The notes under the pieces are model-generated. The model was not told the origin of the DNA and did not search any database. It saw only the letters and a program-made list of their open reading frames with translations. A program made the position numbers and the translations under genes. Positions 13,973 through 20,345 of a stretch of 64,000 nucleotides of DNA are shown here, piece by piece (within the stretch, counting starts at the first letter, position 1; each line of letters opens with the position of its first letter). The stretch is from Chlamydiota bacterium (GTDB lineage Bacteria; Chlamydiota; Chlamydiia; Chlamydiales; RGXB01). The DNA lies in contig CANLTW010000001.1 in NCBI GenBank assembly GCA_947494155.1, forward strand, positions 128,001 to 192,000, in the 5' to 3' direction.

Positions 13973-14907
13973 GGGGGTAAAATCTGGACGTTATCCAGAT
14001 ATTGCAATTCATGGACCGAAGGGGTTGCCGAGAGCCCGTACGCGTATCCACCCTCTTTGAGAGGATCGATTTTTGTGACCACTCCCACATGTAGTCCTCT
14101 TGGAAAAATCCCATCTAAGCCCGTAGTGACCAGAAGGTCTCCCACCCGGATCAGGTGCTCTGTTCTTAAATCAAAGGGGCCACCCTCGCTATCTGCAAAA
14201 TCATAATTGAACCCGTAGCCACTTAAGGTGTCGTAAGCTACCCTCCAACCCGGATTTGCTACCCCTTGAATCACCCCTTTTGCTAAAAGCGCCCCCCTTA
14301 ATGGTCTCACCTTCTCCAATAAAACCTGAATCCAATCATTGGTGAGCTCTTTATGCTCCTGGTTTTTAAAGATCTCCTCCTCTTTTTCTAAAAGATTCTT
14401 AAGCTCATAAAGCCTCTCTTCAAGATAGATCCCTTTTTTCCCCCGGTCCACGCGCACAGCTATTTGTAATTTCGGGTCTGTAATTAGACGCACAAGGCTC
14501 TTTTTTTCTAGCACCTCCTCGATCACCCCCACTACCCCTTTACCTAAAACAACGGGGCTTTTTTTTGCGATGACTGTGGCCCCCAATCGTTTGTTATCCG
14601 CCTCTCCCCTGTCTACCCAAAGAAAGGAGCCGAAAGAGATATTTTCCCTAAAGATCACTTTAGCCTGTATCGCATCCCAGTCTTTTAGGTCGTAGTTAAG
14701 CTGGTTGCGTATTGCATCCAACTCATCCTTCAAAAGAAGATTTTCCAAACTTAGTAGCTCAAGTGTACTATCTCCCCCCGCTTGTGCCGAGCTAAAAAAC
14801 TTTTGCACGCTCGATCTTAGGCGGATCTCTTTCACAAAAGGGATTTGAAAAATCAAAAATAGGATCAGAGACAAAAATAAGAGTGTAGAACCTAGTTTTT
14901 TATCCAT
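13960..14907 (-). CDS. mreC: Rod shape-determining protein MreC
   Basis: N-terminal TM, ENxxLK coiled coil, GVVGVI, SLVRLITDP and VGDLLVTTGLDGIFPRGLHVG. Confidence 0.9.
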   Translation of the reverse strand: MDKKLGSTLLFLSLILFLIFQIPFVKEIRLRSSVQKFFSSAQAGGDSTLELLSLENLLLKDELDAIRNQLNYDLKDWDAIQAKVIFRENISFGSFLWVDRGEADNKRLGATVIAKKSPVVLGKGVVGVIEEVLEKKSLVRLITDPKLQIAVRVDRGKKGIYLEERLYELKNLLEKEEEIFKNQEHKELTNDWIQVLLEKVRPLRGALLAKGVIQGVANPGWRVAYDTLSGYGFNYDFADSEGGPFDLRTEHLIRVGDLLVTTGLDGIFPRGLHVGVVTKIDPLKEGGYAYGLSATPSVHELQYLDNVQILPPQWG

Positions 14908-16078
14908 GACGCAACCTTGAAAAAACCTGTTTAAGCCGCCCGATGTTTGCCGAGTTTACCCCTAAAACATTTAATCTCGAGTCATCGAGCAAATATATGC
15001 TCTCTTTTCTCAACTCCAGAACCGCATCTTTAGATATTCCCAGATAGGAAAAAAACCCTTTCGCCTCTTGGAACTCTTTTTTATGCTGAATCCAGCCCCC
15101 AAATTCTTTCAGTATTAGCTCTCTCATGGCACAGCTTCTCAGCCGGTGCTCCTCGAGCTCATCAAGCCAAAGTTTTTTTCTTTTTAAATCTGTTAATACT
15201 GTTTTGACAACCAGTGCACCATGCGCCGGTGGACTAGAATAATTGCGACGTATGATCTGTTTTATAGTGCTTTGCATCCCCTCATGAGTATGACTCCGAT
15301 TGACAATCATCAGCGCCCCAACCCTTTCCCTATAGAGATCCATAGTTTTTGAATAGGAGAAGGCAACGCACATCTCGATCCCGCTTTTAAAAAAGGTGTT
15401 GACTGCATACCGGTCTTCATCGATTCCATCTCCAAGCCCTAGATAAGCGATATCAAAGAGAGGTAAAAGCCCCTTTTTGAGACAACAATCTAAAATTAAA
15501 TCCCATTCACTGTGGGTAAAATCGATCCCGGTGGGGTTATGGCAACAGCCATGAAGCAAAAGAATGGATCCTTTCTCCAAACGGTGTAAAAAATCAAAAA
15601 ACTCGCCCTTTTTGGCCGTGTGTGTTGTCCGATCATAGTAGGGATAGGTTCTCACCTCAAGACCTGCAGCTTTGAACACACCGTGGTGGTTAGCCCATGT
15701 GGGGTCCGAGACATAGATGGGATGATTCCACTCCAATCTAAGATAATCGGCAAGCACCCTTAGAGCACCAGTCCCCCCTAAAGTCTGTGCTGCTGTAACC
15801 AGAGGAGCATTTTCTAAGAAAAGGAGTTTTTTCGTCTCCTCAAGAAAGTCATGATCCCCCTCGATAGGAAGGTAAGTTTTGGAGACCTCATTCTCGATTA
15901 AAAATTCTTCAGCCTCCTTTACCGCTTTTAAAACGGGGCACTTCCCCTTTTCATCAAGATAGATACCCATTCCCAAATTTATTTTTTCAGAGTTAGGATC
16001 TTTGGCCCACATTCTGCCTATCTCAAGCACCGGATCGACAGGTTGTGATCCCACATGTTCAAAAAAAAGATGCGTCAT
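14900..16078 (-). CDS. aspC: Aspartate/aromatic amino-acid aminotransferase (class I)
   Basis: KINLGMGIY, QTLGGTGAL, LHGCCHNPTG, DIAYLG and PLP-lysine motif SYSKTMDLYRERVG. Confidence 0.92.
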   Translation of the reverse strand: MTHLFFEHVGSQPVDPVLEIGRMWAKDPNSEKINLGMGIYLDEKGKCPVLKAVKEAEEFLIENEVSKTYLPIEGDHDFLEETKKLLFLENAPLVTAAQTLGGTGALRVLADYLRLEWNHPIYVSDPTWANHHGVFKAAGLEVRTYPYYDRTTHTAKKGEFFDFLHRLEKGSILLLHGCCHNPTGIDFTHSEWDLILDCCLKKGLLPLFDIAYLGLGDGIDEDRYAVNTFFKSGIEMCVAFSYSKTMDLYRERVGALMIVNRSHTHEGMQSTIKQIIRRNYSSPPAHGALVVKTVLTDLKRKKLWLDELEEHRLRSCAMRELILKEFGGWIQHKKEFQEAKGFFSYLGISKDAVLELRKESIYLLDDSRLNVLGVNSANIGRLKQVFSRLRHG

Positions 16079-16192
16079 AGAGCCCCTGAATCAAAAAAAG
16101 TTTTTTAAACTATTATCTAAAAGTTCACGAATAGAGACAACTAGAAAAGTTGTTTATTGGCATGTATTCTTGGAAGTAAAGAAGGGATGAAA

Positions 16193-16265
16193 TGGAGTAT
16201 AGCGGACTCGAACCGCTGACCCCAACGCTGCCAGCGTTGGGGTCTACCAACTGAGCTAATACCCC
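16193..16265 (-). tRNA. tRNA-Ala(GGC), aberrant copy with disrupted D-stem (possible pseudo-tRNA)
   Basis: GGGGTATTAGCTCAGTTGGTAGACCCCAACGCTGGCAGCGTTGGGGTCAGCGGTTCGAGTCCGCTATACTCCA. It differs from the second copy at two positions (GACCCC vs GAGCAC), which breaks the D-stem. Confidence 0.75.
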
Positions 16266-16272
16266 GTCAGAC

Positions 16273-17940
16273 TTATTCCTTACCCTCAACAGCCTCAAGG
16301 AAAGCTTGTAGCTGCTTGGATCGGGTGGGATGACGCATTTTTCTCAAAGCTTTGGCCTCAATTTGGCGCACCCTTTCACGAGTTACCTTAAATTGCACAC
16401 CTACCTCTTCAAGAGTTTTCGGTTTTCCGTCAAGTAAACCGAAACGTTCGATTAATACTGTACGCTCTCTGTCAGTTAATGTAGAGAGAACTTCGTTTAT
16501 TTTGTCTTTTAAAATTGAATAGCCGGTGGCATCCGCTGGCGATTCTGTAGCGGTATCCTCAAGAAAATCACCAAATTGGCTCTCTCCGCTGTCTCCCACT
16601 TCTGCTTGTAAAGAGATGGGGTGTTGAGCGATACGATAAATCTCACGCACGCGATCAGGTGTCAACCCAAGCTCTTTTGCCAGCTCTTCTGGAGTAGGCT
16701 CTTTACCTGTCTCCATCATGAGCTTTTTGGCCCCCCTTAATACACGATTGATTGTTTCAATCATGTGCACAGGGATACGGATCGTGCGGGCCTGATCGGC
16801 AATAGCTCGTGTTACTGCTTGTCGAATCCACCAGGTGGCATAAGTAGAAAATTTATAACCTCGGCGGTATTCAAACTTTTCCACAGCCTTCATTAGCCCC
16901 ATGTTCCCCTCTTCAATCAAATCCAAGAAAGAAAGGCCACGGTTAGTGTATTTTTTTGCAATCGAGATCACAAGGCGCAGGTTGGACTCTACCATTTCTC
17001 TTTTAGCTTCCTGGCTCTTGTCCATCCAGCGCTGCAACATGCGGACATCTTTTTTATATTCGTCCAATGTCCTTCCGGCAGCAAGCTCTCTTAAAAAAAG
17101 TCGGCGTCTGGCAGAAAAAAGTTTTTGCGCTGCAAAGCGATTTTTTTCAGCTCTAGGGGTAAGATCTTTGATCTCTTTTTCCAAATGCAAAAGTCTGTCG
17201 TAGCTTGAGAGGATTACTTCGCCGAAATCTTCGATCACCGAATATTTCAGGTGCATGCGTCGCAAGTAGGCTTGAGTTCTTATACGACTTTTTTCTATCG
17301 CCTCGAGAACTTTGATCCTTTCTGCCTTGTTGTTATCCACCTTTTTCATTTTCAAAAGCTGCGGCTCTAAAAAAGCATCCTCTTTAGAAAGGAGCTCCTC
17401 TAGCTTAGGCAACAATTGCATGAACTTAGCGCGGTCTTCCACCTCTTTTTCAGCAGCAATTTTATCAAAACGTTCTTTACCAGCGATAAGGTAACGGATT
17501 ATGGAGCAAGTCTCCCTTTCGGAATAGCGAAAGCGCATAATGATTCTTTCGATCTGCATTTGCGCTTTTTCAATCCTTTTGGAAATTTCGACCTCTTCCT
17601 CGCGAGTAAGAAGGGGAAAAGAACCCATCTCTTTGAGATACATCCTAACGGGATCATCTGCAGCTGCATCGGAGCGTTTTGGTAAGAGTTCTAATTCTTT
17701 AGCCTCTTTTTTACGCTCTTTTTGCTTCTCAATCTCTGCTTGATTGTAGATCTGGATATCCATCCCACTCAAGAAAATCAATACTTGATCGATCTCTTCC
17801 GCCGTGTCAAATGTCATCGGAAGGATATCATTGATCTCTTCGTAGGTGATGAATCCCTGTTCCTTAGCAACAGCGACCAGCTCCTCGATTTTTTGCTGAT
17901 ATTGAGGATCCGTGTGTTGGTTGTCGGATGGCTTGCTCAT
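16273..17940 (-). CDS. rpoD: RNA polymerase primary sigma factor (sigma66/RpoD), derived copy
   Basis: Regions 1.1, 1.2 ([11 protein letters not shown]), 2 ([12 protein letters not shown]...[11 protein letters not shown]), 3 and 4 (TLEEVG...[15 protein letters not shown]) are all present. The SD AAAGGAG before ATG 17940 favours this start over 17973. Confidence 0.95.
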
Positions 17941-18053
17941 AGTCTCCTTTAGTGAAAAAAGGTTTTTTATCAACTACCTAGTCCAGTGACAATAGAGACA
18001 ACTAGAAAAGTTGTTTCTTTACGTGTGTTTTTAGAATTAAAGAAAGGATTAAA

Positions 18054-18126
18054 TGGAGTATAGCGGACTCGAACCGCTGACCCCAACGCTGCCAGCGTTG
18101 TGCTCTACCAACTGAGCTAATACCCC
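18054..18126 (-). tRNA. tRNA-Ala(GGC)
   Basis: Canonical cloverleaf: acceptor stem GGGGTAT/ATACTCC with G3:U70, D-stem GCTC/GAGC, anticodon arm CAACG-CTGGCAG-CGTTG, T-loop GTTCGA; CCA not encoded. Confidence 0.96.
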
Positions 18127-18133
18127 GTCAGAC

Positions 18134-19807
18134 TTATTCCTTCCCCTCAACAGCCTCAAGGAAAGCTTGTAGCTGCTTGGATCGGGTGGGATGACGCATT
18201 TTTCTCAAAGCTTTGGCCTCAATTTGGCGCACCCTTTCACGAGTTACCTTAAATTGCACACCTACCTCTTCGAGAGTTTTCGGTTTTCCGTCAAGTAAAC
18301 CGAAACGTTCGATTAATACTGTACGCTCTCTGTCAGTTAATGTCGAGAGAACTTCGTTCATTTTATCTTTTAGGATCGAATATCCTGTAGCATCTGCAGG
18401 GGACTCGGTAGCGGTATCCTCAAGGAAATCACCAAATTGACTCTCTCCGCTGTCTCCCACTTCTGCTTGCAAGGAGATCGGATGTTGAGCAATTCGATAA
18501 ATCTCACGCACCCTATCCGGAGTCAACCCAAGCTCTTTAGCAAGCTCCTCGGGCGTCGGCTCCTTACCTGTCTCCATCATGAGCTTTTTAGCGCCCCTTA
18601 ATACACGGTTGATAGTCTCAATCATGTGTACAGGGATACGGATCGTGCGAGCCTGATCGGCAATCGCTCGTGTTACTGCTTGTCGAATCCACCAGGTGGC
18701 ATAGGTAGAGAATTTATACCCGCGTCGGTATTCAAATTTTTCCACCGCCTTCATTAACCCCATGTTCCCCTCTTGGATCAGATCCAAGAAAGAAAGGCCA
18801 CGGTTCGTGTATTTTTTCGCAATCGAGATCACAAGGCGCAGGTTGGACTCTACCATCTCTCTTTTAGCTTCCTGGCTCTTGTCCATCCAGCGCTGCAACA
18901 TGCGGACATCTTTTTTATATTCGTCCAATGTCCTTCCGGCAGCAAGCTCTCTTAAAAATAGACGTCGTCTCGCCGAAAAAAGTTTTTGCGCTGCAAAGCG
19001 ATTTTTTTCTGCTCTTGGAATAAGATCTTTGATCTCTTTTTCCAAATGCAAAAGCCTGTCATAGCTTGAGAGGATTACTTCGCCGAAATCTTCAATTACC
19101 GAATATTTCAGGTGCATGCGTCGCAAGTAGGCTTGTGTTCTTATACGGCTTTTTTCTATCGCCTCAAGGACTTTGATCCTTTCAGCCTTATTATTTTCCA
19201 CCTCTTTCATTTTCAGAAGCTGCGGCTCTAAAAAAGCATCCTCTTTAGAAAGGAGCTCCTCTAGTTTAGGCAATAGTTGCATGAATTTGGCGCGGTCTTC
19301 CACCTCTTTTTCGGCAACAATTTTATCAAAGCGTTCTTTGCCGGAGATGAGATAACGGATGATTGAGCAGGTCTCTCTTTCAGAGTAACGGAAGCGCATG
19401 ATGATCCTTTCGATCTGCATTTGCGCTTTTTCGATCCTTTTGGAAATTTCGACCTCTTCTTCGCGAGTAAGAAGGGGGACAGAACCCATCTCTTTAAGAT
19501 ACATCCTAACGGGATCATCTGCAGCTGCATCAGAGCGTTTTGGCAAGAGTTCTAATTCTTTAGCCTCTTTTTTACGCTCTTTTTGCTTCTCAATCTCTGC
19601 TTGATTGTAGATCTGGATATCCATCCCACTTAAGAAAATCAATACTTGATCGATCTCTTCCGCAGTGTCAAATGTCATCGGAAGGATATCATTGATCTCT
19701 TCGTAGGTGATGAATCCCTGTTCCTTAGCAACAGCGACCAGCTCCTCGATTTTTTGCTGATATTGAGGATCCGTGTGTTGGTTTTCGGATGGTTTGCTCA
19801 TATTCAT
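18134..19807 (-). CDS. rpoD: RNA polymerase primary sigma factor (sigma66/RpoD), canonical copy
   Basis: All conserved regions present, including canonical MGSVPLL and DLIQEGN. The start could alternatively be ATG 19801. Confidence 0.96.
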
Positions 19808-19810
19808 GAT

Positions 19811-19839
19811 ATTGTTATATGAATATCACTTAATGTCAA
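19811..19839 (-). promoter_or_regulatory. Candidate sigma66 promoter of canonical rpoD
   Basis: Perfect TTGACA (19839-19834), 17 bp, then a weak -10 (AACAAT) only a few nt before the start codons; no SD visible. Confidence 0.4.
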
Positions 19840-19913
19840 GTTTTGAACAGTCCACCTCCGCTAGCCCTCATAAAAGAAAAAAAAGGGGGGAGCCTTCTGA
19901 CGCCCGTTTTCGT

Positions 19914-20345
19914 ATGGCCAAAAGCTCCTTGCATAGAGACATTCAGCTTTTTTTATGCAACTACTACTCCGGTGAAGATCTTTTAATGGAAAAAAAATTC
20001 CCCTCAATTAAAAGGACGGCAGACCTGGTTTTACTCAAACAAAAAAAGGTCTTTGAGGTGCAGACCTCTTTAATAGGGATTAAAGAGCTTTTAGAGCGCG
20101 AAAGGGATTACCGCTCACTAGGGTATGAAATTACCTGGCTCCTTTACGATAAAATTTTTTACTGTGAACCGCCGCTTCTAGTCACACGTGTTTTTTCTTC
20201 CAAAAACACCTATTATTTCTCGTTTCACAACGAGAAGCTCTTTTTATTTCGTAATCTAGACCTCGAGCCAGTCCCGGTCGATTTGTTTTTTCAACCCGAT
20301 CCATTTTACAAAAAATGTTTGCGATTTTTTAAAGGTTTTCTTTAG
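19914..20345 (+). CDS. CoiA-like PD-(D/E)XK nuclease-family protein
   Basis: SLHRDIQ...RTADLV...VFEVQTSLI...ERERDYRSLGYEITWLL follows the CoiA pattern. Start trimmed from 19773 to ATG 19914. Confidence 0.7.
   Translation: MAKSSLHRDIQLFLCNYYSGEDLLMEKKFPSIKRTADLVLLKQKKVFEVQTSLIGIKELLERERDYRSLGYEITWLLYDKIFYCEPPLLVTRVFSSKNTYYFSFHNEKLFLFRNLDLEPVPVDLFFQPDPFYKKCLRFFKGFL

Follow-up and report, generated by a model that had tools for sequence, protein, structure and literature searches.

A tandem, mosaic second copy of the sigma-66 gene in a freshwater chlamydial genome and its probable standing as a redundant duplicate

Primary-like sigma factors derived from duplication of rpoD, the gene for the housekeeping sigma factor, include the Hrd factors of Streptomyces and the group 2 sigmas of cyanobacteria. 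Very few sigma factors are thought to serve the chlamydial developmental cycle, and duplication of the primary sigma, a known route in other phyla, is apparently undescribed in Chlamydiae. Here, we analyze two complete rpoD genes standing head to tail, each with its own tRNA-Ala(GGC) gene, in a chlamydial window of 64,000 nucleotides (nt) (assembly GCA_947494155.1, contig CANLTW010000001.1, positions 128,001 to 192,000; "the window" means this whole stretch, whose own coordinates are used throughout). The genome is designated G000. Like the single-copy sigma-66 (RpoD) of other chlamydiae, both products have regions 1.1, 1.2, 2, 3, and 4, and the synteny of rpoD with tRNA-Ala(GGC) is the same; the difference is that G000 has two copies in tandem. 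As with the primary-like sigmas of other phyla, a second primary-type sigma occurs beside the housekeeping one, but the G000 copies are adjacent, 98% identical in protein sequence, and alike in all DNA-recognition residues, with no divergence in specificity, and the extra copy keeps region 1.1. Alternative primary factors have also been reported in the Burkholderia cepacia complex, according to the available portion of one article (PMC2194791), and the available portion of another (PMC4652624) gives sigma-66, sigma-54, and sigma-28 as the only sigma factors known in Chlamydiae, with sigma-28 missing from environmental chlamydiae.

The array consists of two units on the minus strand, at 16079-17940 (unit A) and 17941-19801 (unit B), in each of which rpoD is followed after 7 nt by tRNA-Ala(GGC). 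The open reading frames (ORFs) extend over 16273-17973, with the real start at ATG 17940, and over 18134-19807. An upstream in-frame ATG is missing from the related metagenome locus L042, which supports the codon opening the sequence MSKP as the start. The features are as follows; IGR stands for intergenic region, G005 and G006 are related genomes, and L040 is a single-copy metagenome contig that is the nearest relative of the locus.

14900..16078, minus strand: class I/II aminotransferase gene, located downstream of the array and with a start codon homologous to the junction ATG
16079..16192, minus strand: IGR-A, aminotransferase leader of G006 type, with the promoter-like site TTGTCT, 17 nt, GATAAT (16140-16112)
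16193..16265, minus strand: tRNA-Ala(GGC) copy A (tRNA-A), with derived substitutions at 16240 and 16242; 51.8 bits
16273..17940, minus strand: rpoD copy A, 555 amino acids, the extra, mosaic copy, with V108F, S153A, V162A, E200K, E202D, I261T, Q343E, and M481I
17941..18053, minus strand: IGR-B, the inter-copy spacer and duplication junction, with an L040-like start and a G005-type aminotransferase leader at its end
18054..18126, minus strand: tRNA-Ala(GGC) copy B (tRNA-B), a canonical cloverleaf; 65.9 bits
18134..19801, minus strand: rpoD copy B, 555 amino acids from MSKP (ORF open to 19807), the apparent resident, ancestral-type primary sigma factor
19811..19839, minus strand: promoter-like site of rpoD copy B (TTGACA, 17 nt, AACAAT; 10 of 12 matches) in a conserved block

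The units can be aligned without gaps over 1815 nt (16130-17944 against 17991-19805, offset 1861) with 127 differences, or 93.0% identity. Of these differences, 115 fall in the coding sequence (CDS; 1671 nt), 2 in the tRNA (73 nt), none in the 7-nt spacer, and 10 in the 63 nt downstream; most of those in the CDS (102) are at third codon positions, with 10 at first and 3 at second positions. From MSKP onward, the proteins differ at nine residues (6, 108, 153, 162, 200, 202, 261, 343, and 481), none of which lies in region 2.4, 3.0, or 4.2, where the copies are identical. Pairwise Nei-Gojobori estimates were 0.0084 for non-synonymous divergence (dN) and 0.37 for synonymous divergence (dS), a ratio of 0.023. 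The Pfam profiles Sigma70_r1_1, r1_2, r2, r3, and r4 scored above cut-off in both copies. When copy A, the only query used, was searched against PDB, the best 47 matches were RpoD, SigA, or HrdB (E 1.5e-115 to 8.8e-85), with SigB and RpoS scoring lower; both copies are 70-84% identical to RpoD from other families of the order. Together, these results bear out what had originally been predicted from the sequence about the layout of the locus, namely, an intact tandem pair of rpoD and tRNA genes at an offset of 1861 bp, nine amino acid differences from MSKP alongside dozens of synonymous ones, and identical regions 2.4, 3.0, and 4.2.

The spacer between the copies records how the units were joined. 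IGR-B is a homologue of the spacer usually found between tRNA-Ala and the aminotransferase gene downstream of it. Its first 38 nt are identical to L040 (38/38), and its last 52 nt match G005 at 46 positions, against 34 for IGR-A and 31 for L040; the final 16 nt are an exact match to the G005 aminotransferase leader. The 3' end reads AAGGAG, 5 nt, followed by the ATG with which rpoD copy A begins. The duplication thus reaches the start codons, and the junction joins an aminotransferase leader to the rpoD ATG. The aminotransferase leader and rpoD have only this ATG in common. The units stand head to tail, and the bases shared at the junction are the start codon, as is characteristic of illegitimate (microhomology) recombination. 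IGR-A, at the other end of the array, is identical to G006 at 52/52 distal and 37/38 proximal positions.

The two copies differ in ancestry. The G000 flanks are 98.5% identical to L040 over 3.5 kb upstream, and from nt 1000 of the aminotransferase gene onward, there are 0-4 differences per 200 nt (~99% identity). Copy B is 97.7% identical at the nucleotide level to the L040 rpoD and, judged from these alignments, represents the resident orthologue. The identity of copy A is 93.1% to copy B, 93.3% to L040, 91.9% to G006, and 94.2% to G005, a genome whose flanks are only 77-81% identical to those of G000. Quartet sites supported (A,G005)|(B,G006) at 55 positions and the two alternatives at 2 and 6, and in the central CDS, copy A grouped with G005 (support 80/80). 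In the same region, an approximately unbiased (AU) test rejected a clade of A and B (p 8.1e-07) and a clade of A, B, and L040 (p 3.8e-05), although the columns and groups were picked after the pattern had been seen, so that these p values are optimistic. Site by site, copy A is B-like at nt 1-325 and 1506-1635 and mostly G005-like at ~327-1437, with small B-like patches; the leader upstream of it is of G005 type, and from its 3' end through IGR-A to nt 1000 of the aminotransferase gene, the sequence is of G006 type. The first ~1000 nt of the aminotransferase gene have 15 differences per 1000 nt to G006 versus 119 to L040, a pattern that reverses after nt 1000. On these comparisons, the locus is a three-way mosaic on an L040-like backbone. 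The sharp change of nearest relative near 15078 is also of interest in itself, as 15079-16078 is a clean inter-species recombination tract adjoining the array. In the sequencing run X3, the B-like 5' tract of copy A is longer, positions 17617, 17619, and 17635 being B-like. With B-like tracts flanking the G005-like sequence in copy A and a tract length that varies in X3, gene conversion between copies residing together is the best interpretation of these ends. Copy A nests within the genus clade of orthologues (tree and AU test); a group 2 sigma is a distinct paralogue lineage conserved across species, and copy A, present in 1 of 7 genus genomes, is not of that kind.

An array of this type in a metagenome-like, 24-contig assembly could in principle consist of two strain haplotypes of a single-copy locus stitched in tandem. 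Related strains do occur together in the sequencing runs, and the contig changes between L040-like and G006-like sequence. Parts of the window were found in 20 runs from 18 studies, all of them freshwater or lake samples, and four runs were compared (X1, X2, X3, and X15). In X1, the likely source run, exact contigs had depths of 15.8 and 18.6 for copy A, 13.6 and 17.5 for copy B, and 15.9 and 20.6 for the flanks, so that the copies are at parity with the flanks rather than at half their depth. Depths of contigs are only a coarse guide, and a second strain is evident in the same run from variant B-like contigs at 25-29. In X3, which comes from a study other than that of X1, the best holder, an independently assembled 494-nt contig (17587-18080, 4 letters differing) bridges the 5' end of copy A, the junction, and tRNA-B. 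Two of the checks attached to the original prediction, depth per copy against the flanks and a span across the junction, came out in favor of a genuine array at the level of assembled contigs. Moreover, no k-mer graph could have produced the junction, since the ATG is all that the leader and rpoD have in common. The estimated contamination of the genome is 0.03% (completeness 97.6%). An exact-pattern scan for 22 nt of the junction in metagenome_contigs and genome_contigs gave no match, which carries little weight since the window's own or very near records were perhaps excluded. These results confirm that the array is real; the stitched-haplotype explanation is already largely refuted and, in our estimate, has almost no chance of being correct. 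If an ancient in situ duplication had occurred in the ancestor of G000, L040, G006, and G005 and every sampled relative had then lost a copy independently, copy A and the G005 gene would be orthologues of one paralogue. Such a history agrees with the central region, where the A-B distance (106) is close to that between B and G005 (109) and exceeds that between A and G005 (67), and with the L040 spacer, in which B-type proximal, core, and type II distal segments are what a deletion between spacer cores would be expected to leave. However, A and G005 differ centrally about as much as B and G006 do (67 versus 66), while the G000 flanks are 19-23% from G005 and ~8% from G006; similar central but unequal flank divergence contradicts vertical orthology. 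This history would also require at least three independent losses, and the 3' half of the G006 gene is unlike copy A. We consider it improbable. Of the schemes considered for the order of events, namely, single import, integration of a circle, and ancient duplication with losses, none accounts for the ancestry of every segment unless an unsampled donor, or an ancestor, already carried the array. A recent loss in L040, by recombination between two spacer cores, fits equally well as a recent gain in G000.

Among 41 relatives, two rpoD matches were obtained in G000 alone, and all 6 genus mates gave a single match, with rpoD followed by tRNA-Ala(GGC) in 6/6 of them and in 5/6 more distant loci scanned. 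The closest metagenome loci (L040-L043, 95-98% protein identity) are single-copy in 4/4 cases, and among 80 related metagenome loci, two copies were found only in L073, which belongs with a different pair (that of genus g153, below). In run X2, an 890-nt contig joins B-identical sequence (17991-18695) straight to the aminotransferase gene, which is the single-copy form, and the same run also has an exact A-specific contig. Given these contigs and the single-copy relatives, the array is a presence/absence polymorphism among close relatives. Contig ends beside rpoD in G006, G004, and G007 were considered as possible hidden arrays and rejected; the 48 nt upstream of rpoD in G006 correspond to native promoter and not to junction. 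In a phylum-wide sample of 400 scored genomes, 378 had one match, 13 had two or more (including G000), and 9 had none. Three genomes with apparent second copies (G150, G232, and G291) were rejected as single genes split across contig ends, the second match in G155 is a 53% identical partial sigma, and G292 and G348, which also have two matches, lie outside the set examined.

The original prediction had set the pair against a background of sigma-28 and sigma-54 beside sigma-66, and this background does not hold here. The two rpoD copies were the only G000 proteins matching Sigma70_r2 and Sigma70_r4, so that no sigma-28-like gene was found by that profile search, and in a genome estimated at 97.6% completeness, Sigma54_DBD and Sigma54_CBD were without match. 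Sigma54_DBD was likewise found in 0/6 genus mates, against 25/41 genomes overall. As far as profile queries tell, the genus may run on sigma-66 alone.

A further check attached to the original prediction, a search for twin rpoD genes in related genomes, gave none within the genus (6 mates) but did give a pair outside it. Genus g153 (family f33) has a second rpoD in 6/6 sampled genomes, in tandem on one contig in 5 and on separate contigs in 1 (loci L035-L039, from G357, G263, G307, G276, and G400, and metagenome contig L073; for example, L037 1949-3613 and 3726-5402). The gene order there is CoiA-like gene, rpoD, rpoD, tRNA-Ala(GGC), and aminotransferase, with no tRNA between the copies. This pair resembles the G000 array in locus, synteny, and the presence of two intact, full-length sigma-70 proteins, but it differs in being a separate, older event (tree) whose copies are 73-76% identical, in having a diverged upstream copy with genus-wide substitutions in region 2.4, in being kept in 6/6 genomes versus 1/7, and in the presence of sigma-54 (5/5 g153 genomes), which was not found in G000. 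One of the changed positions in region 2.4 is presumably a contact of the -10 element. From these alignments, g153 appears to be a genus of chlamydiae in which a second primary-like sigma has become established. A literature search, outside of which most subscription journals and supplements fell, turned up no account of sigma-66 duplication in Chlamydiae, whether of the G000 or of the g153 type. Adjacent to rpoD copy B of the window lies a divergent gene (19773-20345, plus strand) with a CoiA competence-protein nuclease-like domain (PF06054, E 4.7e-09), similar to the CoiA-like ORF at the same position in g153, which places a competence-associated gene beside a recombination-rich locus.

With respect to selection, the original prediction took the many synonymous differences as a sign of purifying selection on both copies. 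This argument is not supported. Since A and B are not sisters (quartet sites 55/2/6 and the AU test), most of the 104 synonymous differences arose while each gene was the sole rpoD of its own lineage; the pairwise ratio of 0.023 was inherited from separate lineages and is uninformative about selection since co-residence. When singletons were counted over five ingroup sequences, copy A had 6 non-synonymous to 15 synonymous changes, compared with 8 to 85 for B, L040, G006, and G005 combined (Fisher p 0.022), a ratio four-fold higher on the A branch than in the other lineages. Of the nine amino acid differences, eight are derived states of A, and B accounts for only one, D6E. Two of the derived residues stand out. 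Position 108 is V in 97/106 other distinct chlamydial RpoD sequences and never F, which is the residue in copy A. Position 343 is Q in 106/106 of these sequences and in copy B, and E in copy A. Residue 343 corresponds to E. coli 406 (offset 63, PDB alignments), and D403, Q406, E407, and N409 are region 2.2 sites involved in core binding, according to the part of a preprint that was available (bioRxiv 10.1101/2020.09.07.285775). The invariant core-binding glutamine of region 2.2 is therefore present in B and absent from A, and Q343E lowers confidence in copy A as a fully competent primary sigma, B being unaffected. An exact X3 contig (16813-16987) likewise contains the E343 codon (16912-16914); X3 lacks F108. 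The companion tRNA is altered as well. Both tRNAs pass the gathering threshold of Rfam RF00005 (29), and tRNA-B is identical to the tRNA of G005, G006, and L040, whereas the substitutions at 16240 and 16242 break a D-stem pair of tRNA-A, which is matched with a non-standard D-stem pair, and extend its anticodon hairpin. The minimum-energy fold of tRNA-A is without a D arm (-37.7 kcal/mol for A versus -28.8 kcal/mol for B). As an observation in its own right, the same substitutions turn the anticodon hairpin into a perfect long stem, and the folding model allows that tRNA-A may by now serve simply as a hairpin instead of a tRNA. On the strength of the branch ratio, Q343E, the damaged tRNA-A, and a mutated internal -10 box (described below), unit A looks less constrained than unit B.

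The expression signals of the two copies also differ. A native block upstream of rpoD-B is conserved in G005, G006, L040, L042, and L043. Within it, the promoter-like AACAAT box ends 9 nt before the MSKP ATG, with no space for a Shine-Dalgarno site, and the mRNA of copy B is accordingly spaced as if it were leaderless or nearly so. The promoter scan as a whole stayed at the level of shuffled sequence (6 sites found versus 5.5 expected), and because of this lack of enrichment, the rpoD-B site was weighted by its conservation. Across genus members, a stretch of ~50 nt in front of rpoD (window 19799-19860; L003, L004, and L040-L043) is almost invariant, although the coding synonymous sites of these members differ by up to 20%; it contains the TTGACA box and leaves no room for a leader. 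This block points to translation of sigma-66 without a leader and possibly to an operator. In front of the aminotransferase gene, TTGTCT, 17 nt, GATAAT is present in 4/4 leaders (IGR-A of G000, L040, G005, and G006), while the copy of this -10 box in IGR-B reads GGTAGT in place of GATAAT. The leader of copy A, taken from the aminotransferase gene, has a canonical Shine-Dalgarno site. With the -10 box lost from the copied aminotransferase promoter, copy A is probably expressed mainly by read-through past tRNA-B, with Shine-Dalgarno-dependent initiation. The original suggestion that the copies are differently regulated thus holds in the limited sense of different expression signals, a conserved promoter-like site for B and a Shine-Dalgarno leader for A. 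In X15, an RNA library, an exact contig (18060-18397) lies on copy B, which is not proof of transcription.

We propose, with a probability of roughly 0.6, that copy A is a redundant, still-coding second sigma-66 that drifts in a polymorphic array, and not an established new regulator. A 1.86-kb unit of rpoD, tRNA-Ala(GGC), and the downstream spacer would have been duplicated in tandem in a freshwater chlamydial lineage with sigma-66 only, the array being created once by illegitimate recombination in which the aminotransferase start codon was aligned with that of rpoD. Allelic exchange with related species and gene conversion from one copy to the other would later have altered the array. The center and leader of copy A would come from another lineage within the genus. 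Copy B would remain the resident primary sigma, with its conserved native promoter and a nearly leaderless mRNA together with tRNA-B. Copy A, probably transcribed by read-through and translated from its canonical Shine-Dalgarno site, would send polymerase to the same promoters as B, because the promoter-recognition determinants are the same, and Q343E, at the position equivalent to E. coli Q406, would weaken its binding to core. Copy A thus resembles a slightly degrading, borrowed allele more than a demonstrated new regulator.

Several observations weigh against redundancy of copy A. Its frame is open over the full length with all five sigma-70 regions, and regions 2.4, 3, and 4.2 are identical to those of B; the ratio on its branch is ~0.11 by rough site counts, far below 1, so that purifying selection on A has not ceased. 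E343 is common to the X1 and X3 populations and is therefore no fresh private mutation; it could be a selected change. The array has persisted to the point of showing both conversion and differences between studies, and since tandem arrays are usually unstable, this hints at retention. Changes on the A branch are not separable into those before and those after co-residence, the Fisher test is modest (p 0.022) and based on 21 sites, the bases at 16240 and 16242 of tRNA-A lie outside all listed independent contigs, and X15 has only conserved 30-40-nt pieces on copy A, which is evidence neither way. In addition, the retention of the g153 pair in 6/6 genomes indicates that a second sigma-66 is maintainable in this order. 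Much of this is what would be expected if copy A were an early-stage, selectively retained second primary-type sigma, serving the same promoters under different regulation and with a core affinity tuned by Q343E, and the Shine-Dalgarno-led versus leaderless initiation signals and the failure to find any other sigma gene in G000, or sigma-54 in any of the 6 genus mates, point the same way. If retained, copy A would provide the only switch at the sigma level in an organism that has a single type of sigma. We nevertheless regard selective retention as doubtful, if clearly conceivable. The array is confined to 1/7 genus genomes and 0/4 close metagenome loci, the nearest relative, with ~99% flank identity, is single-copy, the low pairwise dN/dS was inherited from separate lineages, the companion tRNA and internal promoter look damaged, and a change at a residue invariant in 106/106 relatives is more typical of decay than of tuning. 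An extension of the same idea, which we hold to be unlikely, is that a second sigma-66 arises time and again at this locus in lake chlamydiae, the window representing the earliest stage and g153 the mature outcome with altered region 2.4; the partition of A and B by translation mode and core-binding glutamine would then constitute a dosage or affinity switch that possibly gates the developmental cycle.

The second sigma-66 gene, even if young and possibly decaying, marks the primary sigma locus as a recombination-active site in environmental chlamydiae, at which extra sigma-66 copies arise and can be exchanged between species. The G000 array and the g153 pair form a natural series, from fresh duplicate to diverged paralogue, in which the origin of primary-like sigmas may be studied. 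The locus also carries a caution, in that a low pairwise dN/dS between tandem copies is no proof of selection on both if their ancestries differ. Finally, partial sigma-70-family matches were noted on short contigs of two other chlamydial genomes, L033 (G155:C91:47-889; 53% identity to rpoD residues 272-553) and L024 (G274:C59:1-729; 60% identity to residues 289-531), and these could be further diverged sigma paralogues or contaminants.

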